From Acidimicrobiia bacterium (GTDB lineage Bacteria > Actinomycetota > Acidimicrobiia > Spongiisociales > Spongiisociaceae): DNA of 64,000 nt. Below, one piece after another: positions 10,846 through 61,799 of the stretch (its first letter is position 1; every line of letters begins with the position of its first letter). The notes below the pieces were generated by a model that had not been told where the DNA came from, searched no databases, and was given only the letters and a program-made list of their open reading frames with translations. Location of the stretch: contig OZ241390.1 of assembly GCA_965200835.1 (NCBI GenBank), positions 2,448,416 through 2,512,415 of the forward strand, given 5' to 3'. A program made the position numbers and the translations under genes.

Positions 10846-11232
10846 TCAAACAGTGCCTAGTAAGGGTGTTATCGCGTAGGTTTTGCGCTCCGCAGAAGTT
10901 TCTCGAACGTAGCGGGTGCGATCGTGGGTGGTTGGTGCCCTGACCCACTCAAGCAGGTCTCTGTGGCCGGTCACGAGGTAATCGGCTGCCTGGTCCCGGG
11001 CAAGGGCCACAAGGTAGTCGTCGTCAACGTCACGGGTCTCCTGCTTGACCACCGCCGGGTTCGGGACAACTTCGGCTAGTCCCCGGATCGTTTTGATGTA
11101 GCGCTGGGCAACGTTGAGGTTGATCCACTTGCGCATCCTCGGACGACGGGTGAGGACGTCGGCGACCTCCGCGATTAGTTCCGGGCACATGACGATGTCG
11201 AAGTCCCTTGATCTGGTTAGCCAGCGCTGCAC
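10846..11232 (-). pseudogene. PIN-domain toxin fragment (TIGR00305-like, N-terminally truncated)
   Basis: The C-terminal two thirds of a PIN-family TA toxin (RDVDDDYLVALARDQAADYLVTGHRDLL) are present. The first about 30 aa with the DTNV motif are missing and an in-frame stop lies upstream. Confidence 0.4.
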
Positions 11233-11352
11233 GATTCGATACGACGGCCCGGACTGAGTCGCTGCGGATACCCAAACGTTGGATCAAGCATTACCCGCAC
11301 AGACGGCTGACGGAGCGGGCACGCCGACGACGCCGCACGGCCACGAACCTCT

Positions 11353-11712
11353 TTGCGTGACGAGATCCATCGTCTCGTCGACGGAGAGTTCAGAGTTGCG
11401 GCGACGTTCGCCACGAGATCCAACCGCGTACGAGACGCGTGGGCTGACTTTGACCCCGGTGCTGCACTCGACCGGCTTGCCTTATGGGCTGACATCGCCC
11501 TTTCCCATGCCTTCGTTCGTGGCACGGACGATCCTGCCGGACACATTGCGAGAGTCGCCGGTATAGAAGGTGCTTGGGCCTTCGGTGAAACCGAGCAGGA
11601 AGCACTCGACGAACTGAGGTCGGTGCTGATCGGTTGGGCACTCCGCAAGCTCGAAGGCGGAGACGACGATATTCCCAGCATGCGGGGCGTTCATCTCGTA
11701 GTCAAGCGATAA
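11353..11712 (+). CDS. HicB-like paralog (orphan)
   Basis: DDPAGHIARVAGIEGAWAFGETEQEALDELRSVLIGWALRKLEGGDDDIPSMRG is about 65% identical to the C-terminus of the 10096..10578 ORF. No partner toxin ORF lies downstream. Confidence 0.45.
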   Translation: MRDEIHRLVDGEFRVAATFATRSNRVRDAWADFDPGAALDRLALWADIALSHAFVRGTDDPAGHIARVAGIEGAWAFGETEQEALDELRSVLIGWALRKLEGGDDDIPSMRGVHLVVKR

Positions 11713-42531: not shown

Positions 42532-45500
42532 ATGGCGGACGGCAGTTTCGTTCATCTCCACGTCCACAGCGAGTTTTCGATGCTCGACGGGGCCGCCCGT
42601 ATCACCGACGCCGTCCAGGCGGCAGTTGCCGACGGCCAACCGGCCCTCGGTCTCACCGACCATGGGGTCCTGTTCGGCGCGGTCGATTTCTACAAGAAGG
42701 CAGGAGAGGCCGGTATCCGACCCATCCTGGGGGTCGAGGGCTATCTGACGCCCGGCTCCCGCTACGAACGCCCCGCCCCCGCCGAGAACATCCGCTACCA
42801 CATCACGCTGCTGGCCGAGAATCAGACCGGCTATCAGAACCTGGTGAAGCTGGTCAGCCGGGCCTATCTGGAGGGCTACTACTACAAGCCCCGGATGGAC
42901 GACGAGTTGCTGTCGGAGTACTCGGAAGGTTTGATAGCCACGTCCGGCTGCCTGGGCGGCCATGTCCCACAGCTGCTGGCGCCCGACGCCTCCCTCGAGG
43001 AGGGCAACATCGCAGGTAGCCGGGATAAGGAGGCGGCTATCGAGGCCGCGGCCATGTATCAGGACATCTTCGGCAAGGAGAACTTCTTCATCGAGCTCCA
43101 CGATCATGGCATCGAGGCGCAGCAGAGAATCCTGCCCGACCTGGTCGATATCTCCCGCCAGATCGGTGCTCCCCTACTAGCCACCAATGATGCCCACTAC
43201 ACCCGGAAGGACGAGGCTGAGGCCCATGATGTGCTGCTCTGCATCCAGACCGGCAAGGAACTCAAAGACCCCGGCCGGCTGAAGTTCGAGGGTGAGGAGT
43301 TCTACCTGAAGACCGCTCGCGAGATGCGGGACCTCTTTCCCCAGGACACCTACCCGGGAGCGTGCGACAACACCCTATGGATCGCCGAGCGGGCTCGGGT
43401 CCGGTTCGACTTCGATCGGCTGCTCCTGCCGCATTTCCCAGTCCCCGCCGGTCACACCTCCCTTTCCTACCTGCGCGAGCTAGTAATCCAGGGAGCGAGG
43501 GAACGCTATGGAGGGGACCTGGGTGGCCCGGTCGGCGAGCGGATCGAGCACGAGCTTCGGATCATCGAGCAGATGGGGTTCCCCGACTACTTCCTGATCG
43601 TGTGGGACCTGATCCGCTACGCCAAGGACCGCCGCATCCGCACCGGGCCGGGTCGGGGTTCGGCGGCCGGTTCGATCGTTTCCTACTCGCTGGGGATTAC
43701 CGACCTGGACCCGCTCGAGTACGGCCTCATATTCGAGCGGTTCCTCAATCCGGGACGCCGGGAGATGCCTGACATCGACATGGACTTCGACGAGCGATAC
43801 CGGGCCGAGGTCATTCGCTATGCCGCCGAGAAGTACGGGTCCGATCATGTGGCCCAGATCGTCACCTTCTCCACCATCAAGGGCAAGCAGGCCCTGCGCG
43901 ACGCGGCTCGAGTCCTGGGACTCCCTTATGCGGTCGGCGACCGGCTGGCCAAGTTGATGCCTCCTGCGGTGCTGGGACGGGAGGCCTCCCTGGAGATCTG
44001 CTTCCAGCCCCCCTCCGAAGATGCCGAGCAGCTGACCAAGGACTGGCACGCCAATGCGGCCGGGTTGAGGGAGGCCTCTCGCGAGGACGAGGTCCAACCG
44101 GTGGTCAATACCGCCCGCCGGCTGGAGGGGTTGAGGCGCCAGGACTCCATCCATGCCGCAGCGGTGGTGATCTCACCCATGCCCGTGATCGACCTGGTAC
44201 CCGTCCATCGGAAGGGGGAGGAGGCGGAGGTCGTCACCCAGTTCGATATGCATGCCATCGAGGAGCTGGGTCTGCTCAAGATGGACATCCTCGGCCTGCG
44301 CACACTGTCCACCATCGACCGGGCGCTCGATCTGATCGAGGCCGGAACGGGGAAGCGGCTGGACATCGACCAGGTGGACCTGGAGGATCCCGCTACCTAT
44401 GAGGTACTGAGCCGGGGCGACACGATCGGGATGTTCCAGCTCGAGGGAACGGCCATGCGGTCGCTGATCCGCAGTCTCAAGCCGGACCGTTTCGAGGACA
44501 TGATCGCGCTGGTTGCCCTCTACCGCCCGGGTCCGATGTCCAACGACTGGCACAACGCCTATGCCGATCGCAAGAACCGTCGCAAGCCGGTCGACTACCC
44601 GCATCCGGCAACCGAGGGGGTGCTGCGGGAGACCTACGGCCTGATGATCTACCAGGAACAGGTCATGCAGATCGCCCGGGAGATCGCCGGTTACACCATG
44701 GCCGATGCGGACGCTCTGCGGAAGGCGATGGGCAAGAAAGTCCCTGCCATCATGCGCAAGGAGCGCGCCAAGTTCGTTTCCGGGGTGGAGGCCAATGGCA
44801 ACCCTGCCCACTTCGGGGAGGAGCTGTTCGCCTCCATCGAAGGTTTCGCCGGGTATGGGTTCAACAAGTCCCACAGTGCGGCTTACGGACTGCTCGCCTA
44901 CCAGACCGCCTACCTCAAGGTTCACCATCCGGCCGCCTACATGGCTGCCCTGCTGACCTCGGTGCGGCGTGACAAGGACAAGACGGCCCTCTACCTGAAT
45001 GAATGCCGCACGATGGGGATCGAGGTGCTGCCCCCCTCGGTCAACGCCTCGGAGGGCGACTTCACCGTCAGGAAGGGGAAGATCCTGTTCGGGCTGTCAG
45101 CGGTGCGCAACCTGGGCTCGGGGATGGTCGCGCGGATCGTTCGGGGGCGAAGCGAAGGTGGGAGTTATACCAGCTTCCAGGACTTCGCCGATCGGGTGGA
45201 GACTCAGGTGCTCAACAAGCGGATCATTGGTTCCCTGGTCAAGGCGGGGGCGTTCGACGAGCTGGGTCATTCCCGCATGGGCCTGTCCCTGGCTTCCGAC
45301 GAGATCCTGCACAATACGGTGGTGCGGCGCCGCCAGGAGGACCGGGGCCAATTCAGCCTTTTCGGTGACGCGACCGGAGGACCCGAGCTCGATCCGGTGA
45401 CCATTCCTGATCAGGAGTGGGATCAGAAGACCCTGCTCTCCTTCGAGAAGGAGATGCTGGGTCTGTACGTTTCCGACCATCCGCTGCTGGGAATCTCCTC

Positions 45501-46041
45501 GATCGTGCGCCACCTGACCACCGCGGCGATCAGGGAACTCCGCGAGATGGACGATCGGTCGCGGGTAAAGGTGTGCGGCATCGTCAGCGGCACCTCCCGG
45601 AGATTCACCAAGGGAGGGAAGGAGATGGCCTTCTTCACGCTGGAGGACATGGAAGCCTCGGTCGAGGTGATGGCTTTTCCCAAGACCATGGAGCACGCCA
45701 GCTCCCTGATCCAGGACGATGCGATCCGGCTGGTGGAGGGCCAGCTGAGCAACTCGGGCGACGACCTCAAGATACGCTCCCACACCATCACCGAGCCCGA
45801 CCTGACCGGCGAGCGGGAGCTGAGACTACGGGTGCCTACCCAGGCGCTGTCGGATGGCCGGACGGTGCATCAGCTCAAGGACATCCTCACCAACCATCCG
45901 GGTTCCTGCCCCGTATACCTCCGGATGATCTACAACGGGACGAGCAAGCTGCTCCTGCTCGATGACAACTTACGAGTGGATCTCACTCTTTCGCTGTACG
46001 CCGACATAAGGAACCTACTAGGAGCCGCCGCGGTAGCTTGA
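42532..46041 (+). CDS. dnaE: DNA polymerase III alpha subunit
   Basis: 1169 aa. PHP domain (HLHVHSEFSMLDG), polymerase core and an OB fold. Confidence 0.95.
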   Translation: MADGSFVHLHVHSEFSMLDGAARITDAVQAAVADGQPALGLTDHGVLFGAVDFYKKAGEAGIRPILGVEGYLTPGSRYERPAPAENIRYHITLLAENQTGYQNLVKLVSRAYLEGYYYKPRMDDELLSEYSEGLIATSGCLGGHVPQLLAPDASLEEGNIAGSRDKEAAIEAAAMYQDIFGKENFFIELHDHGIEAQQRILPDLVDISRQIGAPLLATNDAHYTRKDEAEAHDVLLCIQTGKELKDPGRLKFEGEEFYLKTAREMRDLFPQDTYPGACDNTLWIAERARVRFDFDRLLLPHFPVPAGHTSLSYLRELVIQGARERYGGDLGGPVGERIEHELRIIEQMGFPDYFLIVWDLIRYAKDRRIRTGPGRGSAAGSIVSYSLGITDLDPLEYGLIFERFLNPGRREMPDIDMDFDERYRAEVIRYAAEKYGSDHVAQIVTFSTIKGKQALRDAARVLGLPYAVGDRLAKLMPPAVLGREASLEICFQPPSEDAEQLTKDWHANAAGLREASREDEVQPVVNTARRLEGLRRQDSIHAAAVVISPMPVIDLVPVHRKGEEAEVVTQFDMHAIEELGLLKMDILGLRTLSTIDRALDLIEAGTGKRLDIDQVDLEDPATYEVLSRGDTIGMFQLEGTAMRSLIRSLKPDRFEDMIALVALYRPGPMSNDWHNAYADRKNRRKPVDYPHPATEGVLRETYGLMIYQEQVMQIAREIAGYTMADADALRKAMGKKVPAIMRKERAKFVSGVEANGNPAHFGEELFASIEGFAGYGFNKSHSAAYGLLAYQTAYLKVHHPAAYMAALLTSVRRDKDKTALYLNECRTMGIEVLPPSVNASEGDFTVRKGKILFGLSAVRNLGSGMVARIVRGRSEGGSYTSFQDFADRVETQVLNKRIIGSLVKAGAFDELGHSRMGLSLASDEILHNTVVRRRQEDRGQFSLFGDATGGPELDPVTIPDQEWDQKTLLSFEKEMLGLYVSDHPLLGISSIVRHLTTAAIRELREMDDRSRVKVCGIVSGTSRRFTKGGKEMAFFTLEDMEASVEVMAFPKTMEHASSLIQDDAIRLVEGQLSNSGDDLKIRSHTITEPDLTGERELRLRVPTQALSDGRTVHQLKDILTNHPGSCPVYLRMIYNGTSKLLLLDDNLRVDLTLSLYADIRNLLGAAAVA

Positions 46042-46055
46042 TCCCGGGTCGGGCG

Positions 46056-47198
46056 TTACCCCGGCCACAGCGCGGCGGCCACCTCCTGCCAGGCTGGCGC
46101 CCGGGGATCCACCAGGTCCTGATGTACCGCTCCCCGCACCTGCCTGAGCTCGGCCGGGGTGCCGGAGGACCGTGCCGCCTCCACGAACCGGCTACTCTGT
46201 TCCAGCGACACCTGGCCGTCCCGATCCCCATGTACCGCCACGATCGGTACCCCGCCCGGGAGGTTGCGGATCGGATCCACCGAGTCGGGCAAGGACCGGG
46301 GATCGTGGCCAAGGAACCGGGATAGCAGCTCGTCGAAGTCCTTCCCCAACCTTCGCAGGTCGAGCATTCCGGCCAGCGACACGAAACGGATTGGTGGCCG
46401 GGCCGCGCTGGTGGCAGCAGAAAATCCCAGTTGGCTGCCGGCCGAATGGCCGAGCACAGTAACCCGGTCGAGATCCAGTGTGAACCGGCCGGCGATCTCT
46501 TCCAGGTGGTCGAGTGCGGCCAGCGCATCCGCCATCGTCTCCCGCCATCCGCCGACCGGCGGGATGCGCCGGTACTCGATGTTCCAGGTGGCCTCGCCCC
46601 GCCCGGCCAGGTCGACCGCGATCCCGTCCAGCTGGTCGCGGGTGTAGGGCGCCGCCCAGCCACCCCCATGGATCAGCACCGTCACCGGGTGAGGTCCCGG
46701 CCCGTCCGGCAGGCGCAGGTCGCCGACTTGGTCGGGGTGCTTCCCGTAGGCCAGCGTGATGGCCGGGAGGGCGGCCCAGTAGTGGAGATGGTCGATGGCA
46801 GCTAGGTAGCCGGCAACCCCCCGGCCGAAGATCTGATAGATGCAAGCCGGTTCCGTCACCGAAATCCTGCGCCACGGTTCGCGTTCCCTCACGTTGGAGA
46901 TATGTATCTCCACGGTTGGGATCTCGGCCGCTTCGATGGCGTCATGGAGGGCGTAGCTGGTATGGGTGTAGGCACCGGGGTTGAACACCAGCCCGTCGGC
47001 GGTGTCCCGGGCGGCGTGGATAGCGTCGATCAGAGCACCCTCGTGGTTGGACTGGTAGCACTCGAGCCCATGTCCGAGCTCGACGGCCCGAACCCGGCAC
47101 ATGTCCTCGACCTCCCCGAGCGTGGTCGCTCCATATACGTCGGGCACCCTCAGTCCCAGCAGGTTGAGGTTGGGTCCGTTGAGCAGCAGGATCCGCAT
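46056..47198 (-). CDS. aroQ: fusion protein: type II 3-dehydroquinate dehydratase (AroQ) N-domain + alpha/beta-hydrolase (esterase-like) C-domain
   Basis: The first 145 aa (MRILLLNGPNLNLLGLR...HISNVREREPWRRISV) are a complete AroQ. The C-terminal 230 aa carry an HGGGW oxyanion motif, a GHSAG nucleophile elbow and Asp/His residues. Confidence 0.8.
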   Translation of the reverse strand: MRILLLNGPNLNLLGLRVPDVYGATTLGEVEDMCRVRAVELGHGLECYQSNHEGALIDAIHAARDTADGLVFNPGAYTHTSYALHDAIEAAEIPTVEIHISNVREREPWRRISVTEPACIYQIFGRGVAGYLAAIDHLHYWAALPAITLAYGKHPDQVGDLRLPDGPGPHPVTVLIHGGGWAAPYTRDQLDGIAVDLAGRGEATWNIEYRRIPPVGGWRETMADALAALDHLEEIAGRFTLDLDRVTVLGHSAGSQLGFSAATSAARPPIRFVSLAGMLDLRRLGKDFDELLSRFLGHDPRSLPDSVDPIRNLPGGVPIVAVHGDRDGQVSLEQSSRFVEAARSSGTPAELRQVRGAVHQDLVDPRAPAWQEVAAALWPG

Positions 47199-47433
47199 GG
47201 TCGGTGCCTTCGGTTCGGCAGGTCGGCACGTTCGGCCGCTCCGGCATTATGCCCCATGACGGGACACCGGCACGCCTAGCCCCCATTCCAATAGTTCGAG
47301 GCGGAAATACAATAGGTGCGGTCGGCGATCGGAGGGTTCCATCTATCACGGTGGAGGGGGTGGCTGGTGGTCCTACCTCCGGTACGACAGGACCCAGCCT
47401 GGCCCAGAGCTGGATCGGGCGCTGCTCCGCAGG

Positions 47434-49235
47434 GTGTTCGCCTACGGGCGCCCCTACCGGTGGCTCCTGGTGGGGGTGCTGATCACCATCCTGATCATCT
47501 CGGTCCTGTCGGTGATCCCGCCCATCCTGATCAGGGACCTGGTGGATCGGGCCATGCCGGACGCCGACCTGGGCCGCCTGACCCTGCTCGGGGTCGGGAT
47601 GGTGGCGGTGCCGCTGGTGAACGTCTGTGTGGGCGCCCTACAACGCTGGATGTCTGCCAAGGCGGGCGAGGGCATCATCTACGACCTCCGCCGCAGTCTC
47701 TACATCCATCTCCAAGCCATGTCGCTGCGGTTCTTCACCGCCACCAAGACCGGCGAGCTGGTGTCACGCCTCGACAATGACGTGGTGGGCGCTCAGACGG
47801 CCATCACCGGCACCTTCGTGACCATCCTGTCCAATCTGGTCTCGATAGTGGCCATCCTGTTCGTGATGCTCCAGGCCGAGTGGCGGCTGACGCTGCTGGC
47901 GGTGGCCGCCTTCCCGCTGTTCGTTTACCCGGCTCGACGGGTGGCCCAGATCCTGCGCCGGATCACCCGCCGCCAGATGCAGCACAACGCCGCCATGGCC
48001 GCCATCCTCAACGAGACTTTCAACGTCAGCGGAGCCCTGCTGGTCAAGCTGTTCGGCCGCCGGCGCCAGGAGACGGAGCGGTTCTCCGAGGAGGCCCGGG
48101 CGGTGCGGGATCTGGGGGTTCGCCAAGCGGTCATCGGGCGGTGGTTCTTTGCCGCGCTCGGGGCGGTCAGCGCCATCGGGACCGCCACGGTGTTCTGGGT
48201 GGGTGGCTATCTGGTGATCCAGGGTTCCCTGAGCCTGGGCACGGTGGTCATGTTCTCCTCCCTGCTGTTCCAGCTGTATGGGCCCCTGGCCGCCATGTCG
48301 AACGCCCGGGTGGAGTTCGCTACTTCCCTGGTCTCCTTCGAGCGGGTGTTCGAGGTACTGGACCTACCCCACGACATCACGGAGGAGCCCGATCCGCTCG
48401 ACCTGCGGCCGGTCCGGGGCCGGGTCCACTTCGATAGGGTCTCCTTCCGCTACCAGGGGGATGAGCTGTCGGGCCTGGCCCCGCCCAGCGTTCCTGGGGG
48501 ATCGAGGACAGTGATGCTCCGGCGATGCAAGCCACCCGCACCTGGGCGATCGACGACCTGTCCTTCCGGATCGAACCGGGAGAGCTGGTAGCGCTGGTCG
48601 GACCATCGGGGGCCGGAAAGACCACCGTCTCCTACCTGGTTCCCCGGCTGTACGACACCGAACGGGGGCGGGTGATGATTGACGGCACCGATGTACGGCG
48701 GGCGACCCTCGCCTCGCTGGAGGAGGTGGTGGGGGTGGTGACCCAGGAGACCTTCCTGTTCCACGACACCATTGCGGCCAACCTCCGGTATGCCAAGCCC
48801 GATGCCTCCCAGGAAGAGCTCGAGGAGGCGGCTCGAGCAGCCAACATTCACGACTTCATAATGACCCTGGCCACCGGTTATGACACGGTGGTGGGGGAGC
48901 GGGGCTACCGGCTGTCGGGGGGCGAGAAGCAGCGCATCGCCCTGGCCAGGGTGATCCTCAAGGATCCGCAGATCCTGATCCTCGATGAGGCCACCGCCCA
49001 TCTCGACTCCGAGTCGGAGGCGCTCATCCACGAAGCGCTGCAGCGGGTGATGGCAGGTAGAACCTCGCTGGTGATCGCCCACCGCCTGTCCACCATCGAG
49101 TCCGCCGACCGGATCCTGGTGCTGGACGAGGGCCGGCTGGTGGAGGAGGGAACCCACACCGAGCTGCTCGAGGCCGATGGTCTATATGCCCGGTTGCGCC
49201 GGATCCGGCTCAGGCGGCGGAAAGTTCCCGCCTGA
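47434..49235 (+). pseudogene. MsbA-like ABC exporter (fused TMD-NBD) disrupted by a frameshift near 48470-48540
   Basis: ORF 47434..48591 holds a 6-TM domain up to VSFRYQGDE and then runs out of frame. ORF 48525..49235 holds the NBD ([34 protein letters not shown]). In the NBD frame the upstream sequence already reads ...[14 protein letters not shown]. Confidence 0.7.
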
Positions 49236-49768: not shown

Positions 49769-52700
49769 TTGACCGAAAACACGCTTCCCACACGAGCGCC
49801 CTCGGTGGGCGAGCTGGTAAAGGTCAGGTCACGCCAGTGGCTCGTGGAGGAAGTGGGCCAGTCCGACAACCCTGATCACTCTCCCCGCGTGCCGCTCGCC
49901 TGCGTCGACGATGACAATCAGGGCCAGCGCCTCTCTGTGTTCTGGAAATACGAACCGGATCGGCTGATCCTCGAGGACGCCGGTTGGAACCACCTGGCGA
50001 CCAAGGGCTTCGACCCACCCCGGCGCTTCGCGGCCTTCCTCAACACCCTGCGGTGGAACTGCACCACGGCCACCGACCCCACCCTGCTCCAGGCGCCCTT
50101 CCGAGCGGGCATCACCATCGATGCCTACCAGATGGAACCCCTCCGCAAGGCCTTGCGCCTCCCGCGGGTGAACCTGCTGATCGCTGACGACACCGGCCTG
50201 GGCAAGACCATCGAGGCGGGCTTGATCACCCACGAGCTGCTCCTCCGCCGCAAGGTCAAGGTCATCGTGGTGGCCGCGCCCCCGTCGATGCTGGAGCAGT
50301 GGAAGGGAGAGATGGAGGATCGCTTCGGGCTGGTGTTCGAGGTGCTCGACCGGAGCTACGTCTCGAGGATGCGGCGTGAGCGAGGTTTCGGGGTCAACCC
50401 GTGGCGGACCCACAGCCGGTTCCTGGTGTCGCACCGCCTGCTGATCGACCCCTCCTACACCGACCCGATGCGGGAGTGGTTGGGTGACCTCCGCACCGGC
50501 AGCCTGCTGATCCTCGACGAGGCGCACCATGCCGCCCCCACTTCGGGCGGGCGCTACGGCATCGAGACCAAGTTCACCCGGGCAGTTCGCGATCTCGCCC
50601 ACCGCTTCGAGCATCGCCTGTTCCTGTCGGCCACGCCCCACAACGGGCACTCCAACAGCTTCTCCACCCTGCTGGAGATCCTCGACCCGTACCGGTTCAC
50701 CAGGGGAGTCAAGGTGACCGCACCCAAACAGGACCTCGCTCCGGTGATGGTGCGCCGGCTGAAGGAGGACATCCGGGCGCTGCAAGGTGGGTTCCCCAAG
50801 CGCAACGTCCAGCGGATCGAGATCGACGGCTTGCCCCACGACGCTCCGGAGTTGGCCCTGTCCCGGTTGCTGGATGAGTACGGCCGGGTACGCGATGAGC
50901 GCTACTCGCTGGAGTCGAAACGAGTCCGTTATGCGGCGAGGCTGATGGTGGTCGGCCTGCAGCAGCGCCTGCTGTCATCGATAGAGGCCTTCCATCGCAG
51001 CCTCCTGGTCCATCGCCGGACCGTGTTACGCCACTGGACCAAGGCCCACGAAGAGGTGTCTGAAGACACTCCACAAGGGCGCGGGATCACGACGAGTGAG
51101 CGCCATGACTTCGTGGCAGCTGCCGATGCGGACGATGACCGAGCCGAGTTGACTCCGGAGGAGGCGGGAGCGGACGAGCAGGCCCAGATCGAGGAGATCA
51201 ACGCGGCCTCCCTTCCCTCGCGGGACCCGGCGAGGGCAGCTTGGGAACGGGAACAGCGCCTCCTCGACCGGATGCAAGCGATAGCGAAGAAGGCCAGGCA
51301 TCATCCCGATGCCAAGACCCGCTGGCTGATCGACTGGATCCGCCGCCACCAGTGCCCGGATCTGCCCGAGCTCGGCCGACCCATCATCGGCCCTCCGCCG
51401 ACCTGGACCGACCGCCGGGTGCTGATATTCACCGAGAACCGGGAAGGCACGAAGAAGTACCTGAAGTCGATCCTCGAGCAGGCCATCTTCGGTTCCGACC
51501 GGGCGGACGACCGGATAGCGATCATCGACGGGCTGACCAGCCCGGCCCGCCGCCGGGATGTCCGGCGCCGCTTCAACGCCGATCCCGCCCGCGAGCCCCT
51601 GCGGATCCTGATCGCCACCGACGCCGCCCGGGAAGGCCTCAACCTGCAAGCCCAATGCTCGGACATGTTCCACTTCGACCTGCCCTGGAACCCCGGCCGC
51701 ATCGAGTAACGCAACGGTCGGATCGACCGAAAGCTCCAACCCGCCGATCAGGTGAACTGCCACTATTTCGTGCTGCCCCAGCGGGTTGAGGACCGGGTGC
51801 TCGATGTCCTGGTCCGCAAGACTGAAACCATCAAGCAGGAGCTTGGTAGTTTGCCGAAGGCCATCGAGGACACAGTGGAGCAGCGCCTCACGCGGTACGG
51901 GATCCGTCACCACGATGCGGAGAACCTGCGGCGCAAGGTAGAGGCCGAGTCGGTGGACCAAGCTCACGCAAGCGTGTCCGACGAGGAACTCGAAGCCGCC
52001 CGGGACCGCCGCCATGACCTCCAGGATCAGATAGAACGCTGCCGCCGGCTCCTCCAGAAGTCCCGGAGCTGGGTGAGATTTTCCCCCGAGCCCTTCCACC
52101 AGGCCATCGACTGCTCCCTGGAGCTGCTGGGTGCCCCACCCCTGGTGGAGAGCACCCAGGTCCAGGGGGGGGGGGCGTCGTCGAGTTTGGAAGTTCCCTG
52201 AGCTAGATCAGAGGGCAACCACCGATCCGAGCTGGGTTTCCACGCTCGACTCCCTGCGGGTTCCCCGCAAGATCGACCAGAAGATACCCGACTGGCGGCG
52301 CGACGCGCCCATCCGACCCCTGGTGTTCGAGGACACCGGACTGCTCGATGACCAGACCGTCCACTTCCACCTAGAGCAGCGAGTCGCTCAGAGGCTGCTG
52401 GCCCGCTTCCGATCCCAGGGCTTCATCCATCATGACCTTTCGAGGGCCTGCCTCCTGCAGTCGCGGGACGCAATATGCAGGGTGGTGCTCCTGGGACGGC
52501 TGTCGCTATACGGCCGGGGTGCTGAGCGCGTCCACGAGGAGCTCGTTCCGGTAACCGCCCGCTGGACCGATCCCGACCGGCGCTCTGGCCCCTTACGTGC
52601 CTACGCGACGGACACTGAGCGGTTCACTATGCGGCTGCTCGACGAGTCGTTGAGCTCCCAGGCTCGCTCGCCCAATCCGCAGGTCAAGCGGCGGCTGCTG

Positions 52701-53081
52701 GGCAGTGTCGCCCAGGACATCGAGGAACTACGTCCACATCTAGAGCCCCGCGCCGCCACGTTTGAGGAGCGCGCCAGAGAGCAACTGGCAGAACGCGGTA
52801 AGCGAGAGGAGCGGATGCTGCATGACACGCTCGAGCGGCACCGCACCCAGGTGGTTGCCCAACTCTCCCGTTATAAGCGCGACCTCAAGCAGCTGTCCCT
52901 GGGGTTCAACGTTGCGGAGAGGGGGCAGCTCAAAGCCGACATCCGCCACTGGGGCCGGCGCCTGGAGAAGTTCGATCAGGACTTGATGGACGAGCCCGCC
53001 CGGGTTCGCGAGCTCTACCGAGTGCGGGTCACCCGGGTGGAGCCGGTGGGCCTCGTCTACCTATGGCCGGAGGGAAACTGA
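49769..53081 (+). pseudogene. SNF2-family helicase (DISARM DrmD-like) with an in-frame TAA at 51707 and a G11-tract frameshift at 52165
   Basis: Walker A LIADDTGLGKT, DEAHH box, LSATPHNG and motif VI DLPWNPGRIE-*-RNGRIDR, with the stop in place of the conserved Gln. ORF 51752..52201 continues in the same frame. After the G11 run, the frame of ORF 52131..53081 continues for a further 300 aa. Confidence 0.7.
52165..52175 (+). repeat. G11 homopolymer tract inside the SNF2 helicase gene
   Basis: Eleven consecutive G residues read directly. Reading frames switch across it. Confidence 0.9.
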
Positions 53082-56000
53082 TGCCCAAGCCCAACCGCTA
53101 CATCACCGACCATCTCGAATGGATCGGCTTCGTTCGGCCCACCGGTCTGGTGGTGTCAGCTCCCGCCTTGGTAAAGGCGGGCGTCATCCTCAACCGTCGG
53201 GATCGGGCCGGCCAGCAACTACTCAAGGAGTGCCTACCGAACGGCTCGGGTACGACGGGATCACAACCCGACCCGGCCCCCGTACTTCCGGACTTCCCGG
53301 CCTTCGCCCGTACGGTGCTCGGCTGGAGTTTCTCTCCCAAGGGCTATGCCGGTACGGAGGAATCACCGATTCCCTCCGAGCTCGAGCTCTCCCTACCCGA
53401 TTCCGGAGGCGGGTTCCGGCCTGACTTCGCAGTTCTAGCCGACCCTGCCCGGTCCCGGCCGCCCGCCACCAACGGAAACAAGCGTGAAGGGACCGACCGG
53501 GCATCGCCCTGGCAGCTGCTGGTCAGCACCTACGAGCCCTGCGAAGACTTCGACAAGACAGCCTCGAACGGCTCGGGAGTGGAGATGTCGCCCCACAGCC
53601 GGATGGAGCGCCTGCTACGTGACACCCGGGTGCCCGCCGGGCTCCTTTTCGACGGAACGACCATTCGCCTGGTGTCCGCTCCCAAGGGCGAGAGCTCGGG
53701 ATGGATGGACTTCCAGGTGGGCGACATGATCCAGACCGCTGGGCGCCCGATCTGCACTGCGATGCGCGAGCTGCTCAGCCAGACCCGGCTCCTAGTCGTA
53801 GGGCGCGACCAGCGCCTGGCCGCGCTGCTGGAGGACAGCCGGAAGTTCCAGAACGAGGTGAGCGAGCGCCTGGCCGAGCAGGTACTGCACGCTCTGTACG
53901 AGCTACTGCGAGGTTTCCAAGCCGCCGATGACACCGCAAAAGGCCAGCTACTTGGACGCTGGCTGGCTGACCAACCCGATGAGATCTACAGGGGGTTGCT
54001 CACCGTGGTGCTGCGCCTGGTCTATCTGCTGTACGCCGAGGAACGCGACCTGCTGCCCCAGGACGAGACCTTCCTAGGGCCTACTCGGTGTCAGGCCTAT
54101 ATGAGCGTCTGCGGGCTGACGCCTCCCTCCATCCCGACACTATGGACCAGCGCTACGGAGCCTATGCCCAGCTCCTAGCCCTATGGCGCATGGTTCATGA
54201 CGGGGCCAAAGCGACCGACATGGTGATGTCGCCCAAGTATGGCGACCTCTTTTGCCCGACCGCTACCCCTTCCTCGAAGGCAGTCTGGGGGCCAGGCAGA
54301 CGACTGACCGCATCGAGGCACCGCTGGTACCCGACGGCACTATCCATCGGGTGCTGGAGAAGCTGATCGTGCTGGACTCCGAGCGCATCTCCTACCGAGC
54401 TCTCGATGTGGAGCATATCGGTTCGGTGTACGAGACCATGATGGGTTTCCGCCTCGAGAGGGCCACCGGTCGCAGCATCGCCATCAAGGCTGCCAAGAAA
54501 CACGGCGCTCCGGCCACCATCAACCTCGATGAACTGCTCTGTCAGGCTTCCAGTAGCCGGACCAAGTGGGTCAAGGATCGGACCGATCGACAACTAAGCG
54601 CAAAGGTGGGCCGGGCGGTCCGGGAAGCCACCACGCTGGAGGAGCTCCATGCCGCCCTCGATCGGGTGATCGACCGCCAGGCCACACCTGATCTCGTCCC
54701 GCCCGGCGCCATGGTGCTGCAACCCAGCCAGGAGCGCCGCCGCTCGGGTTCCCACTACACGCCCCGCAGCCTGACGGAGCCGATCGTCCGCAAGGCGCTG
54801 GACCCAATCCTGGACCGCCTCGCTGAAGAACAAGAGGGCCCACTTCGACCGGAACAAATCCTCGACCTGAAGGTGTGCGACCCGGCCATGGGCTCGGCGG
54901 CGTTCCTGGTAGAAGCGTGCCGCCAGCTGGCCGACGCCCTGATCGAAGCTTGGCGGGCCCACGAAGAAGCACCCGACCTCCCCCCGGGCGAGGACCAGCA
55001 GATCTTCGCTCGCCGACTGGTGGCTCAACGCTGCCTCTACGGAGTCGACCGCAACCCCAAGGCAGTGGACCTAGCCAAGCTGTCGTTGTGGCTCATCACC
55101 CTGTCCAAGGACCATCCGCTCACTTTCCTCGACCACGCCCTCCGCCATGGCGACTCGCTAGTGGGTCTGTCGATCCCTCAGATAAGGGCTTTCCATTGGA
55201 AAGGCAACGCTCCCGCCTTTCAGGAGGGTTTTGAGGCCCTCCGAGGACAGCAGCTACTCGCCGATGCAGCCGAGCTACGCAGGTGGATTCGCGAGGAAGG
55301 CGACACCATATCCGAGCGGGAGATGCGCGAAGCGTGGATGGAGTCGCGTGAAGTGACCGACGACCTCCGCTTGTTGGGGGACCTGGTGCTGGCGGCGTTC
55401 TTCGATGAGTCCACGCCAACGGCGCGGGAGGCACGTCGTAAAAGGTTCGCGAATGGCGTTCAGAACGGTATCGAGGGACAGTATCGCGCCTGGATGGAGG
55501 AACTTCGCAACCAGGACCGACCCCTCGCGCCACTCCACTGGCAGATCGAGTTTCCCGAGGTCTTCGACCGTCCCAATCCCGGCTTCGATGTCATAGTCGG
55601 TAATCCACCATTCGCTGGTAACAACACTATTACCGCTTCGAACATCAACCGCTATTCCCACTGGCTCAAGGAGATGCATGTTGAGAGCCACGGCAATTCG
55701 GACTTGGTAGCTCACTTCTTTCGGCGAGCCTTCAATCTGGTCCGTATGGGTGGAACCTTTGGTCTTATCGCTACCAATAGCATCTCCCAAGGTGACACAC
55801 GCTCGACGGGACTACGATGGATATGCAAGAACGGCGGAGAAATATTTTGTGTTCGCAAGCGTGTGAAGTGGCCTGGACAAGCTGCGGTAGTAGTGAGTGT
55901 ACTCCACATCAGCAGAGGTGGATTTCACGGCTACAGGCTCCTTGACGGTCACTCCGTATCAAAGATCACAGCCTTCTTATACTATCGAGGCAAGAACGAT

Positions 56001-57107
56001 GATCCGAGGTCGTTGAAAGCTAACATAGCCAAGAGTTTCTTGGGTAGTATAATACTGGGGATGGGGTTTACTTTTAACGATAACGATAAGGAGCGTGTGG
56101 CTACACCAATTAGAGAGATGGAAAGACTCCTAAGGTCTAATCCTTCGAATCAAGTGGTTATTTGTCCATATATAGGAGGGAGGGAGCTAAATAACAACCC
56201 GACCCAAAAAAACCATCGTTCCGTAATTGACTTCGGGGAGAGAAGTTTGTCAAAGTGCAGATTCCATTGGCCCGACTTACTAGAGATAGTAACCAATAAG
56301 GTTAGACCAATACGAATCAAGAAGCGTTATCCTCGTATGGCGAATGAGTGGCGGAAACATTATGCACCCCAATTAAAACTATACGATTCTATTAGGGGTT
56401 TAAAACGGGTTATGGCAACTTGTAGGGTTAGCCAACACATGTCTTTTGCCTTTCTGTCTAACGGAATGGTCTATGCAGACTCATTAGTTATATTCTCCTA
56501 TGAGAGATTCGCCGCATTCTGCGCGCTCCAAGCAAGACCTCACGAGATCTGGTCTCGATTCTTCGGATCCTCGATGAAGGACGACTTACGCTATACAGTC
56601 ACAGACTGTTTCGAGACATTTCCACTTCCGAATAGCTGGGAGAGCCGCTCCGACTTCGAATCAGCAGGTGAGGAATACTACGAGTTCCGGGCAGACCTGA
56701 TGAAATTCAACGATGAAGGCTTGACCAAGACATACAACCGATTCCATGATCCCAGCGAGAACGATGCCCGGATTATCGAACTCCGTAGACTGCATGCCGC
56801 CATGGATCGGGTTGTACTGGACGCATACGGGTGGAGTGACATCCCGACGGACTGTGAGTTCCTGCTCGACTACCCGATCGATGAGGACAACTGGGGCAGG
56901 AAGAAGAAGCCTTACCGCTACCGCTGGCCTGACGAGGTTCGTGATGAGGTGCTGGCTCGGTTGCTGGAGCTCAATGCCGAGCGGGCTGCTGAAGAAGCAC
57001 GGTCCGGTCAAGCCAACCCACCGCGTGGCCGGGGACGGCTCCAAAAGTCGCCACCCACGACTTCTCCATCCAACCAACTCACCTTGAGCCCTTCCAATGG
57101 CACCTGA
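53081..57107 (+). pseudogene. Eco57I/type IIG-like N6-adenine DNA methyltransferase (DISARM DrmMI-like / PglX-like), two frameshifts
   Basis: ORF 53063..54178 in frame A, ORF 54088..54366 in frame B (SGLYERLRADASLHPD...) and ORF 54252..57107 in frame C. Frame C carries motif I (DPAMGSAAFLVEA) and motif IV (VIVGNPPF). An ATG at 53081 overlaps the upstream TGA (TGATG). Confidence 0.75.
55740..56800 (+). other. low-GC (about 45-50%) segment inside the methyltransferase ORF
   Basis: Base composition falls sharply against about 68% flanks while the reading frame stays open (ICKNGGEIFCVRKRVKW ... NRFHDPSEND). It lies downstream of the NPPF catalytic motif, where target-recognition domains sit. Confidence 0.7.
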
Positions 57108-57120
57108 ATGGAGGTGACCC

Positions 57121-60100
57121 ATGCCTGAGCCGGACCCATCTCCCGGATGGAACGAGGCCCCCTCACCGGAGGTGCGCGACTACCTGGTCGAAGCGTTGCG
57201 GCTCGATCTGGTCGGTCCGGGGGCTGGCCATCACCTGGCCGATGAGCAGCTGCCGGGATGGGTTAGACCGTCCAGCTGGTACCTCACCGGGTTTCTGATC
57301 CCCTCGGGCACGCCACTCGAGTTGCGCTCCGACAACGACGAGGACGACCCGCTGGACGAGACTCCGGCCACCGCCGGTCTGGCTGAGGAGTCGTCGGAGG
57401 AGCGGAGGGCAGCCCGCAAGAGCTTCTTCCCGTCGTCGATCGGGCTGAGCTTCCTCGTCCCACACAAGACGGAGGTGCTGGACATAACCGTTCGCTGGGG
57501 CGACTACCAGCGGTCGACCACCGAGGGCACCGACGGCAAGCCGCTGAAGGTGTGGCAGAGGCACCCGCAGGAGCACACCGTGGCGGTCACTCTCCCGGAC
57601 CGATCCTCCGATCATGAGGTTCCGGAGTCCGGTGGGCTGGGGCTGCACATGGTCACGAGGCCAGTGGAGGTCGAGGGTCCCGACGGCCTCACCCAGCAGG
57701 TCAATTCGGTGTCGATATTCCTGGTCAACCATCGGCCCTCGCTCGGGGGCCAGCCCGGCGACGTTACGAGCCTCGGCGACGCCGATCTCGGCTACGCCTT
57801 CCAGGCCGAGCTCGAGATCACCAGTGAGGTGCCATTCGTGCCCCGTCCTGACCCCCGTGGGGCGCATGGTCGGGAGTGGGACGACCAGGTAGCCGACCTC
57901 CACTATGCGGACACACCTGAGTACGCGGTCGGCCACGGGGTATCAGCCGAGTGGGAGGTGGTGGGCGGCAAGTGCCATGTCCTGCGCACTACCTGGATCC
58001 CGGACGCCGCAGTGGCGAAGACCGAGGCCACCTCGAAGCCGGAGGCGGAGCTGTCGATGGAGGTGCTCGGAAGTCTTCCGGATGGCGACGCGGTATCGGC
58101 GGCCTTGCGGCCGCTGGTAGAGCACTACCGAGCCTGGATCGACAGCCAGTACCGGACTCTCACCGCACACACGGGTGACCGCCGGAAGACCGCGGGGGAG
58201 CTATTGAGTCACGCCCGCGGGGCCGCCGACCGTATCGAGCGGGGGATCGACCTGCTGGTTACCGACCCGGACGCCCTCGACGCCTTTCGGGTGGCCAACC
58301 GGGCCGTGGCCACTGCCTTGCAGAGGAGGATCGGCTCCCCACCTGAGGAGTCGGGATGGCGCTGGTATCCATTCCAGCTGGCGTTCATCCTGCTCAACCT
58401 CCCCGGTCTGGGCGATCCGCAACATCCCGAGCGCCCAGTGGTCGACCTCCTCTTTTTCCCGACCGGCGGCGGCAAGACCGAGGCCTATCTGGGTCTGGCG
58501 GCCTTCACCATGGTGCTGAGACGCTTGCGGGAACCCGGCCATGAGGGCCGGCAAGGGGCAGGCGTCACCGTGATCATGCGTTACACGCTCTGGCTCTTGA
58601 CCCTGGATCAGCTGGCCCGGGCCTCCGGCCTGGTGTGCGCGCTGGAACTGGAGCGCCAGCTCGATCCCGACCGCTATGGAACCTGGCCGTTCGAGATCGG
58701 CCTGTGGGTGGGCAAGGCGGCCACCCCCAACGCGATGGGTCGGGTGCGTGACGGACGGCAGGACACGGCCCGGGCCAAGACCCGCCGATACAAGGCCAAT
58801 CCGGGATACCACCCCCTGCCCATTCCCCTCGAGACCTGCCCGTGGTGCGGTCAGCAGTTCGAGCCGGCGAGCTTCACGCTGCTGCCCGACGACGAGCTGC
58901 GCATCGTGTGCCTCAACTTCGAGTGTGACTTCCAAGGGGACAACCCGCTGCCGATCGTGGCGGTGGACGATCCCATCTACCGGCGTCTGCCTGCCTTCCT
59001 GATCGCCACGGTCGACAAGTTCGCCTCCCTGCCCTGGACGGCCCGCACCGGCCTGTTGCTCGGCGGCGCCGACCGCATCGACGCCAAGGGCTACTACGGA
59101 GCGGCCGATCCCGGAATCGGTCGCCCGCTCGACCACCCGCTACTGGCCCCTGACCTGATCATCCAGGACGAGCTGCACCTGATATCAGGGCCCTTGGGCA
59201 CCATGGCCGGCCTGTACGAGACGATCATCGAAGCCTTATCTGTCCAGGCCAGCGAGCGGGCCGGTCATCGTCCAGAGGGCCGCCGGTCGCCGCAGGTACG
59301 GCCCAAGATCGTGGCCTCCACTGCAACAGTCCGCCAGGCGCAGAGTCAGGTCCAGGCCCTGTTCGCCCGGTCGGCCACCCGGGTGTTCCCACCCCCAGGG
59401 CCGGACCGGAAGGATTCGTTCTTCGCCGAGACTGTCCCCACCACCCAGGTACCCGGCCGCTTGTATCTCGGTATCGCGGCGCCGGGACGGAGTCCCAAAG
59501 TCCTGATGCGCCGGGTCTGGCTGGCCCTGATGGGATCCGCCGAGCGGGCCTACCGAGACGCCGGCGGGCGCAAGAACCGGGACAACCCGGCCGATCCCTA
59601 CATGACCGTGCTGGGTTACTTCAACAGCCTGCGGGAGCTGGGTGGGGCGCGCCGCATCCTCGAGGAGGAGGTCCGCAACACCGTCAAGACCTACGGGCGT
59701 CGCCGCCGGATCGGCCAGTCCTTCCAGGAAGCACCGTTCCGGGATCGGACCAGCTTCGCGGAGGTGGTGGAGCTCACCTCCCGGGTTCCGACCGGCAAGG
59801 TGGCCGAGGCGAGACGGCGGCTGGGATGCGCCAAGCACGAGCAGGACAGCGTGGACAGCGCTATCGCCACCAACATGATCTCGGTGGGTCTCGACATCCC
59901 CCGGCTCGGGCTGATGGTGGTAGTCGGCCAGCCCAAGACCCACTCCGAATACATCCAGGCCACCAGCCGGGTGGGGCGGGACGATCAGCGGCCGGGACTG
60001 GTGGTGACCTTGCTCAACATGCACAAACCCCGCGACCGATCCCACTACGAGCGCTTCCGTCACTACCACGAGACCTTCTACCGCTCCGTGGAGGTGTCCA

Positions 60101-61799
60101 GCGTCACGCCCTTCTCGGCCAGGGCCCTCGACCGCGGGCTGGCCGGCGCACTGGTGGGCTACGCCCGCCATGCGGAAGGAGTGCTCACGCCGGCCGAGGG
60201 AGTCGAGGAACTCGAAGCGGTCAGGGTTACGGTCGAACGACAACTCCGGCAGGTACTGCTGCAGCGAGTGGACCGCCAGCCCTTCCAATACGAGACCGAG
60301 CACACCGAAAGGCGCCGGAGCGTGACCGCCCGGGTGGTGGAACTACTCGACTCGTGGTTGAAAGTGGTGGAGGGCTACCACCAGGTAAACAGCCCGGTGA
60401 GGTATCAGAAGTACGAGGGGAAAGCGGCCGCCAAACCACTGTTGCGGGAGATGCTCGACCAGGACTTCGAGACCGCCCACCATCGCAAGTTCCGAGCCAA
60501 CCGCTCCCTACGTGATGTCGAGCCGGAGGTGAACCTGTATATCAGGCCGCTCACCGCCTCTCTCGGCGACTCTACGAGGCCACCGAGCTCAGCGACTGGC
60601 CGCTCGGTCTGTGCCTGGGCAGGCGGCCGTGGCTGGGTCGCGGCACCGACGAGGATTGCACGCTACCGAGCCGGTTGCTCATCCGCACCGCCTCCAACGC
60701 CTACTTTCCCCAGGTGGTCAGCGTCCTGTCGCTGCCTGATCGGGGCACCGATCTGGACCGGGTGGTGGGGGAGCTCTGGGAGGACCTTCAGCTGGTGGAC
60801 CGCTTGAGCCATCTCCGCTTCCTCAAGAAGAAGGCGAAGGTAAGCGGGGGACTGGCTGGCTTTGCCGACGCTGAGGTGCTGAAGGCGATCCAACGCCGCA
60901 AGGGCGGGTCCGCGGGCGACCGCTCCGTCAAGGAGGCCGAGCTCGAGGAACTGCTGGCCGCGCCGGAAGGATTCGGCGACCGGGGACAGGTCGATCCGAA
61001 CTTCCACGCCCGGCGCCTGCCACAGAGTGCCTGGAGATCCCCGCGGTCGAAGCTGAGCGGTGGAGTAGAGGGAGTGATCCACCTCCACCGGTTGCGCGAG
61101 GTGCTGGCCCTGATCGGATTCACCCGCTTCGAGGCCGTTATCCGTGACATCCACGGCGAGTACGACACCGATGTCGAGCGGGCCGGCATCGCCCTCGATC
61201 CCAGCTGGTTTCCGGCGATCGAGAACCGTGACGAAGGCCTGTTCGCCTACCTGAGACCGGAGGAGGTCGACAGGTGGTTACGGAGACGACCCGCGCAAAC
61301 CCGGATAGACGACCTTCGCAACCGGCACGAGACCGGCCAGCAAGGCCGTAAGCATCCCTGGCCCTTCCCCGGAGGCCCCTACATCCTGTTGCACACGCTC
61401 GCACACCTGCTCATCCAGTGGCTGGCCATGCGTTGCGGCTACCCGGCCAGCTCCATCCGCGAGCGGATCTATGTGGAAGGTCAGCGCTATGGCCTGCTCC
61501 TCTACACCGGATCTCCCGACGCCGAAGGGACCCTGGGCGGCCTCGTCCAGCAAGCCCGCCACTTCGAGGACCATCTGGCCTATGCGCTTCGGGTGGGCGA
61601 GCTTTGCTCCAACGACCCGATCTGTGCCCAGCACGGAGCTGGCACCGCCCTCGAGGAGGGTCACCTGCACGGTGCCGCCTGCCATGCTTGCACGCTGATA
61701 GCCGAGACCACCTGCGAGATGCGCAACGACTACCTCGACCGGGCGCTGGTAGTCCCGACCCTCGGCTCGGACGGTGCCGCCTTCTTTCCGTCCCCCTGA
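57121..61799 (+). pseudogene. large DEAH-box helicase with C-terminal DUF1998/MZB zinc-binding domain (DISARM DrmA+DrmB-like in one frame), one frameshift near 60540-60575
   Basis: ORF 57121..60807 has a 440-aa N-terminal domain, Walker A FFPTGGGKTEAYL, IIQDELHLISG, an inserted CPWCG...CLNFEC zinc ribbon and motif VI QATSRVGRD. ORF 60675..61799 has the DUF1998 Cys cluster CSNDPICAQH...GAACHACT. GC3 tracks frame 0 until about 60575 and frame +2 from about 60543. An SD GGAGGTGA lies 6 nt upstream. Confidence 0.7.

Follow-up and report, generated by a model that had tools for sequence, protein, structure and literature searches.

A natural fusion of a type II dehydroquinase to an alpha/beta-hydrolase in Acidimicrobiia, and relatives built on an eroded dehydroquinase domain

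Why a core enzyme of the shikimate pathway should be covalently continued into an apparent esterase is the question raised by one gene of Acidimicrobiia bacterium contig OZ241390.1, located within the 64,000-nucleotide stretch analyzed here (hereafter, the window). Type II dehydroquinase (AroQ) is an antibiotic target, and its textbook form is a stand-alone homododecamer assembled as a tetramer of trimers. In the window, a complete AroQ reads without a stop into an alpha/beta-hydrolase. The original prediction, drawn from the sequence alone, offered either a coupling of dehydroquinate or dehydroshikimate chemistry to ester hydrolysis or a lost stop codon. Neither answer is favored by the present analysis. 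The fusion is an old one that occurs widely across two classes of Actinomycetota. In its best explanation, to which a probability of roughly 0.6 can be assigned, the protein is bifunctional: a working, probably housekeeping dehydroquinase and a working serine hydrolase would carry out independent chemistries, with the AroQ fold acting as a rigid and probably oligomerizing platform.

The fused gene and its two active sites

The gene is a single open reading frame on the minus strand, a strand that the original prediction had not given, with an ATG start, 380 codons, no internal stop and a TAA at 46056-46058. By sequence reading, a GAAGG lies ~10 nt upstream of the ATG. The proposal of a complete AroQ joined covalently to a catalytically equipped alpha/beta-hydrolase is borne out by the reading frame, the motifs, Pfam and NCBIfam, and all of the motifs named at the outset (NGPNLNLLG, which falls at residues 7-15, HISN, HGGGW, GHSAG and the Asp/His pair) could be verified codon by codon. 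The parts of the gene are as follows.

46056..47198, minus: complete fused AroQ-esterase gene (open reading frame listing; identical protein in the independent assemblies L001-L003)
46764..47198, minus: type II 3-dehydroquinate dehydratase (AroQ) domain, residues 1-145 (Pfam, NCBIfam, structural match to 8idu)
47133..47150, minus: lid-loop segment R17-Y22 with the catalytic Tyr and the lid Arg (invariant in intact fusions, deleted in the decayed-AroQ branch)
46893..46904, minus: H-I-S-N motif, residues 99-102, including the catalytic His99 (sequence reading; invariant in 94/94)
46761..46826, minus: junction, G125-R126-G127 and the last AroQ helix leading into the first esterase strand (AlphaFold2 secondary structure)
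46059..46763, minus: compact, apparently cap-less alpha/beta-hydrolase (serine esterase) domain, residues 146-380 (Pfam, PDB sequence and fold matches)
46656..46670, minus: HGGGW oxyanion-hole motif, residues 177-181 (sequence reading; conserved in relatives)
46437..46451, minus: GHSAG nucleophile elbow, residues 250-254, with the nucleophile Ser252 (sequence reading; conserved in relatives)
46218..46220, minus: catalytic Asp327 (94/94 and 173/174 homologues)
46122..46124, minus: catalytic His359 (92/94 and 172/174 homologues)

The fusion is genuine. Ten other contigs, all from independent short-read assemblies, encode an identical 380-residue protein with the same neighbors. Among 1048 matches retrieved from 5.8 billion proteins, the best 120 all cover both domains at 48-72% identity, with lengths of 373-426 residues except for one partial sequence of 288 residues; the named homologues among them are called 'type II 3-dehydroquinate dehydratase' and come from Acidimicrobiia or Actinomycetota metagenome-assembled genomes (MAGs). 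When sought in other genomes, the same fusion is thus found widely, including 174 representatives with an intact AroQ, most of them from Acidimicrobiia. A sequencing or assembly error that erased a stop codon, or a frameshift between adjacent genes, might have been suspected since the window assembly does hold broken genes close by (an ABC exporter, DrmD and DrmMI are each split), but the probability of such an artefact is now vanishingly small: the reading frame is identical in independent assemblies, its ungapped junction is conserved in hundreds of homologues down to 48% identity, and in the structural model the junction is one continuous helix and strand. The lost stop codon allowed for in the original prediction is refuted by the same evidence.

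Homologues in which the hydrolase is an adjacent, separate gene were not encountered either. Two apparent hydrolase-only versions, P0129 and P0134, annotated as 'alpha/beta hydrolase' of 208 and 222 residues, were ruled out as start-codon miscalls, the DNA beneath each encoding an intact, ungapped fusion of 379 residues in one frame. NCBI calls only the last 208 and 222 codons of these genes (L088 3488-4624, GCA_026713805.1; L089 3530-4666, GCA_026710435.1), and their aroQ function is thus missing from the annotations. True stand-alone relatives of the esterase (L026, L062 and L082) have neither aroQ nor YhhN within 10 kb. The Nocardia relative in L062 starts with a hydrophobic stretch that, by sequence reading, may be a signal peptide, and the 262-residue relative in L026 (9920-12438) is followed by an apparent FAD-dependent aromatic-ring monooxygenase with a C-terminal cupin-like region, as read from the translation. 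Independent AroQ fusions in Firmicutes (L046 and L056) were likewise dismissed, these being plain aroQ genes of 146 and 144 residues that follow aroK, with alignment coverage past residue 145 attributable to read-through noise.

The N-terminal half matches Pfam DHquinase_II (PF01220) over residues 2-138 (E 9.6e-53; 178.1 bits versus a cutoff of 23.3) and passes three NCBIfam models (NF003807, 175 versus 130; NF003806, 172.7 versus 171; NF003805, 169.1 versus 146). AroQ enzymes rely on a lid-loop Tyr and Arg, on the His of an H-x-S-N motif with its Glu partner and on a trans-acting Asp from the neighboring subunit, while the substrate is bound by Asn, His, Ser and Arg. Eleven residues (N10, R17, Y22, N73, H79, D86, E97, H99, S101, R106 and R110) are invariant in 94/94 fused homologues, and their roles are taken to be those established for the M. 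tuberculosis and S. coelicolor enzymes. Because the trans-acting Asp86 is invariant, the trimer interface is presumably retained, which suggests that the fused AroQ keeps at least a trimer. In the AlphaFold2 model, this half has the AroQ fold, superposing on C. glutamicum dehydroquinase 8idu at 52% identity with a target-normalized template-modelling score (TM-score) of 0.95 and a root-mean-square deviation (rmsd) of 1.1 Å over 139 columns (Foldseek, model versus PDB).

The C-terminal half, of ~235 residues, has Pfam matches that span residues 167-372. BD-FAE (PF20434) scores highest (residues 167-340, E 3.7e-15, 56.5 bits versus a cutoff of 26.8), joined by Abhydrolase_3 (PF07859; 37.2 versus 25), Peptidase_S9 (36.3 versus 22.6) and Abhydrolase_6. 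No specific esterase family emerged from the NCBIfam equivalogs, as LipP1, chloramphenicol hydrolase, Aes, LipQ and others all score far below cutoff (best 44 bits versus 350); the weak top matches are hormone-sensitive-lipase-type esterases. The window protein has all of the expected catalytic residues, and these are largely kept in the 94 fused homologues (HGG in 94, Asp327 in 94, His359 in 92 and Ser252 in 81). By sequence, the nearest solved relative is PDB 9x6a, a 'carboxylesterase' (E 6e-19) for which no publication was found; by fold, Foldseek retrieves Est2 of Thermogutta terrifontis, heroin esterase, TrLipB, BD-FAE carbohydrate esterases and P. chlororaphis Lipase 1. The half is thus predicted to be a small serine hydrolase of the HGG type (BD-FAE or family IV-like), a carboxylesterase or an amidase apparently without a cap, that would use Ser252-Asp327-His359 and an HGG oxyanion hole.

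Modelling of the full protein, a check foreseen in the original prediction, gave a confident two-domain AlphaFold2 model from the 94-sequence alignment, with a predicted local distance difference test score (pLDDT) of 93.9 and a predicted TM-score (pTM) of 0.92. Because such a pTM is reached by a protein made of a 145-residue and a 235-residue domain, the inter-domain arrangement is confidently fixed. No linker separates the last AroQ helix (residues 127-143) from the first esterase strand (147-150), and among homologues the junction is conserved, ungapped and free of low-complexity linker. N-terminal cap helices that shape the acyl and alcohol pocket are typical of the hormone-sensitive-lipase family. 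Alignments with stand-alone PDB esterases begin at query residue 131-138, and the C-terminal AroQ helix therefore takes the place of their own N-terminal segment. In the proposed mechanism this helix would have become the N-terminal helix of the esterase, locking the domains together, with a fusion-specific Arg at the joint: position 126, the middle of a G-x-G, is Arg in every sampled intact fused protein, in 34 of 36 decayed relatives and in 1 of 69 canonical AroQ proteins.

A sister branch with a decayed AroQ domain, and the origin of the fusion

An exhaustive HMMER search with the esterase half alone yielded 209 representatives at E<=1e-30. The best 150 of these comprise about 100 stand-alone esterases, 14 proteins with a detectable AroQ and 36 proteins with an N-terminal domain of 120-140 residues that is not picked up by the AroQ of the window protein. 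These undetected domains follow the AroQ layout, with the 12-residue lid loop that carries R17 and Y22 deleted and with N73, H79, D86, E97, H99, S101, R106 and R110 replaced. An alignment of 34 such domains with intact AroQ by hhalign has a probability of 99.8% (E 3.7e-28), and of 98.8% (E 4.4e-17) when the shared last helix is left out. Pfam scores form a series of decay through 36, 33, 32 and 13 bits to nothing, and the decayed domain of P0345 matches a canonical aroQ directly (tblastn E 6.5e-6). As hhalign, Pfam and tblastn agree, the decayed N-terminal domains are AroQ homologues at the level of sequence; a Foldseek search of a decayed protein for the AroQ fold returned esterases only among its top 50 PDB matches.

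A hidden Markov model (HMM) of intact AroQ splits the two-domain proteins cleanly, with 174 scoring >150 bits, 113 scoring <80 bits and none between. A profile search with the decayed set reaches 2216 proteins at E<=1e-20, including those of the cultured Thermoleophilia Capillimicrobium parvum (P0352) and Conexibacter stalactiti (P0353). Such proteins share with the window fusion the two-domain layout, the junction helix, Arg126 and the esterase clade, but they lack the lid loop and the AroQ catalytic residues and are encoded in catabolic-type clusters rather than beside dnaE. The Capillimicrobium protein is modelled as confidently as the window protein (pLDDT 95, pTM 0.93). Decayed proteins are often named 'acetyl esterase/lipase' by JGI, sometimes with '/3-dehydroquinate dehydratase' appended. 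The Capillimicrobium parvum protein itself (CP087164.1; L090 10001-11131), which is devoid of the lid loop and of all AroQ catalytic residues, is a '3-dehydroquinate dehydratase' in UniRef and an 'alpha/beta hydrolase' at NCBI.

The two active sites show a reciprocal pattern of retention. In the decayed-AroQ proteins the esterase is close to perfect (Ser 113/113, His 113/113, HGG 112/113), as it is in stand-alone esterases (nucleophile Ser 86/86, His 85/86). Proteins with an intact AroQ keep HGG in 174/174, Asp in 173/174 and His in 172/174, with the canonical Ser present in 159/174; the 15 nucleophile losses consist of 13 GHGSG, one Thr (GHTTG, P0019) and one Asp (GHDAG, P0089). Among the sampled proteins, the canonical Ser is missing only where AroQ is intact, and none has lost both sites. 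A GHGSGG subclade (P0087, P0093, P0095, P0100, P0111-P0113, P0116 and P0118-P0120; for instance, L086 10001-11161) has Gly at the nucleophile position and Ser shifted by one residue while keeping HGG, Asp and His, and its esterase may be inactive or re-registered.

In the esterase-domain tree, a single clade of 111 tips takes in 100 of the 105 two-domain proteins, and nearly all stand-alone esterases lie outside it. In the AroQ-domain tree, which was cut at HMM-defined domain boundaries, 45 of 46 fused domains form one group versus 69 canonical AroQ. The homologue pairs at hand are either >97% or <72% identical, which for a dN/dS comparison of the domains would leave synonymous sites uninformative or saturated. 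The trees, Arg126 and the active-site pattern together point to essentially one fusion, to a junction that afterwards became structurally essential and to later one-sided losses, and the fusion thus appears to have arisen essentially once in Actinomycetota. From there, three paths can be proposed. Both sites would have been kept in the window protein and in most Acidimicrobiia; only the esterase would have been kept, on a dead AroQ scaffold, in Thermoleophilia and others, within catabolic operons; and, rarely, only the dehydroquinase would have survived.

The surroundings of the decayed genes are varied. The Capillimicrobium cluster holds HyuA-HyuB-HyuB, the decayed gene, a ferredoxin and a short-chain dehydrogenase/reductase (SDR) under TetR control. 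In Conexibacter, a Mo-hydroxylase, an SDR, HyuA/B and PNPOx precede the gene, which is followed by a second HyuA/B pair, GntR and Amidohydro_2. Locus L091 combines DAO, a metallo-beta-lactamase-fold gene, a proline-racemase-family gene, the decayed gene, an amino-acid ABC transporter and an amidase, whereas L093 has a tandem second BD-FAE paralogue, SnoaL, a Mo-oxidoreductase and an isochorismatase-family gene. The tandem paralogues in L093 (8001-10378) are 387 and 395 residues long, the first being the decayed-AroQ/esterase protein. Hydantoinase A/B (HyuA/HyuB) pairs recur beside the decayed genes in L090, L092 and L093, together with SDRs and GntR or TetR regulators, and these settings could represent an uncharacterized lactam or N-heterocycle catabolic module in Thermoleophilia, as gene content goes. 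Evidently the esterase scaffold was recruited to small-molecule catabolism in this branch, possibly of an amide or lactam, a context that says little directly about the substrate of the window protein.

In locus L094, the decayed gene is accompanied by a DLH hydrolase and a Rieske protein, and genes for tryptophan dioxygenase and kynureninase lie at a distance of 5 kb. A role as an alpha/beta-hydrolase kynurenine formamidase (KFase) was considered and rejected: no KFase is found among the PDB sequence matches or the top 50 fold matches of the window model, Drosophila KFase appears only at rank 17 in the fold matches of the Capillimicrobium model, and L094 is the only decayed-branch locus with those two kynurenine-pathway genes near, with none in the window.

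Genomic setting and possible functions

The window gene lies in a region of core genome that runs, in order, through fabH/fabG/fabF, dinB, the mraW-to-ftsZ division (dcw) cluster, ileS, lspA, rluD and dnaE. After dnaE come the convergent fusion gene, an ATP-binding cassette (ABC) exporter and a DISARM island. The immediate neighbors are as follows.

42532..46041, plus: dnaE, convergent with the fusion gene, the stops being 14 bp apart; syntenic anchor (open reading frame listing)
47199..47433, no strand: divergent intergenic region of 235 bp between the fusion gene and the ABC exporter, presumed to hold the promoter
47434..49235, plus: ABC exporter (transmembrane and nucleotide-binding domains), syntenic neighbor, split by a frameshift near 48471-48483 (Pfam)

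No Rfam family, sigma-70-like or terminator-like match was found in 47199..47433, and no riboswitch, promoter or terminator signal flanks the fusion gene; a sub-threshold Prion_pknot match within its coding sequence was discarded as chance. The frameshift in the exporter occurs only in the window, where the tblastn alignment breaks at residue 347-350, and L001 and L003 encode an intact 600-residue protein, so the split is either an assembly indel or a strain-specific pseudogene. Further on, class-1 DISARM occupies 49769-61799 on the plus strand with DrmD, DrmMI, DrmA and DrmB (PADLOC E-values down to 1e-284). DrmD (49769-51709, 52131-53081) and DrmMI (53063-54178, 54252-57107) are both split, which with the ABC exporter makes three broken genes in 15 kb.

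Gene order around the fusion is kept across Acidimicrobiia as ABC exporter - (LplA-B-like) - fusion - (YhhN) - dnaE. The dnaE neighbor recurs in L001-L005 and L084-L089, and more distantly in L010, L011 and L085-L087. In L012 (4124-5304), an Actinomycetota MAG, the same slot directly after the LplA-B-like gene is occupied by a plain aroQ of 142 residues, which ends exactly at the would-be esterase start, has G-E-G in place of G-R-G and nests among the fused AroQ in the tree. Its presence indicates that the slot gene is the ordinary aroQ of the lineage and that the esterase module can be absent, whether this stand-alone aroQ lost its esterase secondarily or has persisted from before the fusion. 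From synteny and conservation, the N-terminal half most likely supplies the shikimate step of the cell, from 3-dehydroquinate to 3-dehydroshikimate, as a housekeeping enzyme.

What the two activities have to do with each other can be weighed against this background. A coupled route, as first proposed, would begin with esterase cleavage of, for instance, chlorogenate or caffeoyl-shikimate to free quinate or shikimate, and AroQ would act catabolically on a downstream intermediate. In its favor, some organisms use type II dehydroquinases for quinate catabolism, the nearest AroQ structure (C. glutamicum 8idr/8idu) comes from such an organism, and the top Pfam match of the esterase, BD-FAE, is named for feruloyl and acetyl-xylan esterases. 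The surrounding genes do not fit, however. No other shikimate gene is present in the 64 kb of the window; no quinate/shikimate dehydrogenase, dehydroshikimate dehydratase or other shikimate gene was found within 4-10 kb in nine Pfam-called loci and the window, nor any protocatechuate gene or aromatic transporter near the gene in the window and the Pfam-called related loci. The locus is a conserved housekeeping region, its carriers come from varied sources judging by record titles and names (a marine metagenome, the isolate BMS3Abin02 and several other MAG series), and with a quinate ester the two fused activities would have to be bridged by a dehydrogenase. Moreover, the sister branch keeps a perfect esterase on a destroyed AroQ site in hydantoinase- and amidase-type clusters, so the esterase has no need of dehydroquinase chemistry. 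The coupling suggested in the original prediction thus finds no support, and such a route is very improbable.

The opposite extreme, in which the esterase domain is catalytically irrelevant and only modulates or stabilizes the dehydroquinase through a change of oligomer or through ligand sensing, draws on the roughly 9% of intact-AroQ representatives that keep the domain without a canonical nucleophile (GHGSG, GHTTG or GHDAG), and on the slower evolution of the AroQ half (55-79% identity versus 33-61% for the esterase half, by tblastn). It is quite improbable nonetheless, since the preservation of triad and oxyanion hole in the window protein and in 159/174 intact relatives is hard to explain without catalysis, and in L012 an AroQ of this lineage does exist with no esterase attached. 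A narrower form of the bifunctional explanation, which specifies the substrate, has the domain hydrolyze lipids or lysolipids, stripping off the sn-2 acyl group ahead of vinyl-ether cleavage by YhhN, with AroQ as a functionally unrelated passenger and scaffold. YhhN overlaps the fusion stop codon in L085 (11155-11793) and L087 (9140-9784), follows it within about 80 bp in L011 (~11182-11700) and lies 3.4 kb away in L086 (14553-15179), which suggests an operon in distant Acidimicrobiia lineages. The substrate of the characterized M. tuberculosis YhhN is restricted to sn-2-deacylated lysoplasmalogen, and the enzyme itself lacks esterase activity (PMC9052158); the weak top NCBIfam matches are of the hormone-sensitive-lipase type. 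Yet YhhN is absent next to the window gene and from its whole 64 kb, where dnaE directly abuts, and the clade of the window lacks an adjoining YhhN; in its small size and apparent lack of a cap, the domain resembles short-chain esterases and not lipases; and the adjacency elsewhere may be mere inherited synteny. Such a role is plausible for the distant fused lineages with their translationally coupled YhhN, not obviously for the window, and is unlikely as a general account.

The bifunctional explanation fits these observations best. The gene encodes one rigid protein with two domains, each of them predicted to be capable of catalysis, and the two chemistries are probably independent. The esterase would probably act on a small acyl ester or amide, and possibly on a lipid ester upstream of YhhN in distant fused lineages. 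That the AroQ fold now also serves as a structural, probably oligomerizing, platform for the esterase is suggested by the retention of the dead AroQ fold and its junction wherever the esterase is kept, by the fusion-specific Arg and by the rigid geometry of the model. Several points weigh against this account. The aroQ equivalog TIGR01088 scores 165.7, marginally below its cutoff of 169.85. The 15 nucleophile losses come from few lineages, 13 of them from the one GHGSG subclade, so that the reciprocal pattern amounts to few independent events. The trees are neighbor-joining trees on cluster representatives; 11 'stand-alone' esterases fall inside the two-domain clade of the esterase tree, and in most bootstraps 1-4 misplaced taxa keep the fused AroQ domains from being strictly monophyletic. 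In addition, a fixed fusion can persist without functional advantage.

A bolder version of the platform idea, which is doubtful at present, holds that the AroQ fold has been co-opted as an assembly and substrate-pocket module. Trimers or dodecamers would then carry 3-12 esterase sites, each partly built by the junction helix and Arg126; the dehydroquinate pocket would remain catalytic in the window protein and, among the decayed relatives, might have turned into a ligand-binding or allosteric site through which the esterase is tuned. If true, a core metabolic enzyme would here be turning into a pseudoenzyme scaffold, and every intermediate stage would survive today.

Comparison with known systems

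Both domains are of known kinds, and the architecture is present in databases, hidden by one-sided names. No description of a natural AroQ-hydrolase fusion was found among 7.7 million PMC papers and in bioRxiv, and what is new here are the 113 two-domain relatives with a kept esterase triad on an eroded AroQ domain. The finding bears on no long-standing open question. Its value lies in one family that holds proteins which appear bifunctional, proteins reduced to an esterase on a dead AroQ and a few in which apparently only the dehydroquinase is left, offering a compact system for studying division of labor and pseudoenzyme formation after fusion in a well-studied drug-target family. There is also an annotation hazard. 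Intact fusions are labelled only 'type II 3-dehydroquinate dehydratase', leaving the esterase invisible, while some are truncated to 'alpha/beta hydrolase', and pathway reconstructions for Acidimicrobiia and Thermoleophilia that are based on such names can err either way.

Compared with canonical AroQ (C. glutamicum 8idr/8idu, M. tuberculosis 3n59 and S. coelicolor 1gu0), the fused AroQ is 43-52% identical, has the same fold (target-normalized TM-score 0.92-0.95, rmsd about 1.1 Å) and shares all catalytic and binding residues. The canonical enzymes are 140-170 residues long and stop after the last helix, whereas the last helix of the fused protein continues into the 235-residue esterase. The residue inside the G-x-G before that helix is an invariant Arg in fused proteins and K, L, H, F or Q in canonical AroQ, and the fusion gene lies outside any aroK/aroB-type operon, unlike the aroQ of L046 and L056.

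On the other side, HGG-type esterases (9x6a, T. terrifontis Est2 5ao9, heroin esterase 1lzk and P. chlororaphis Lipase 1 9n8r) have the HGG, the G-x-S-x-G and the Asp/His triad of the fusion and the same core fold (Foldseek E about 1e-14), the fold-search matches being only 18-25% identical. The layout of 9x6a can be followed along the esterase half (YG-HPDQV-DL-LP, HGG-W-APY, EYRR and GHSAG, in that order). The N-terminal helix or cap region of the stand-alone enzymes is replaced in the fusion by the last helix of AroQ.

Covalent joining of a shikimate enzyme to a second catalytic domain has precedents. Fungal AROM and plant DHQ-SDH are shikimate-enzyme fusions that use the unrelated type I dehydroquinase. 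AROM, plant DHQ-SDH and the exported chorismate mutase-cyclohexadienyl dehydratase each join consecutive steps of the same pathway. The last of these is another natural shikimate-enzyme fusion (PMC10520331). Like them, the AroQ-esterase protein links a pathway enzyme covalently to a second catalytic domain; it differs in that its partner is a hydrolase without a known place in the pathway.

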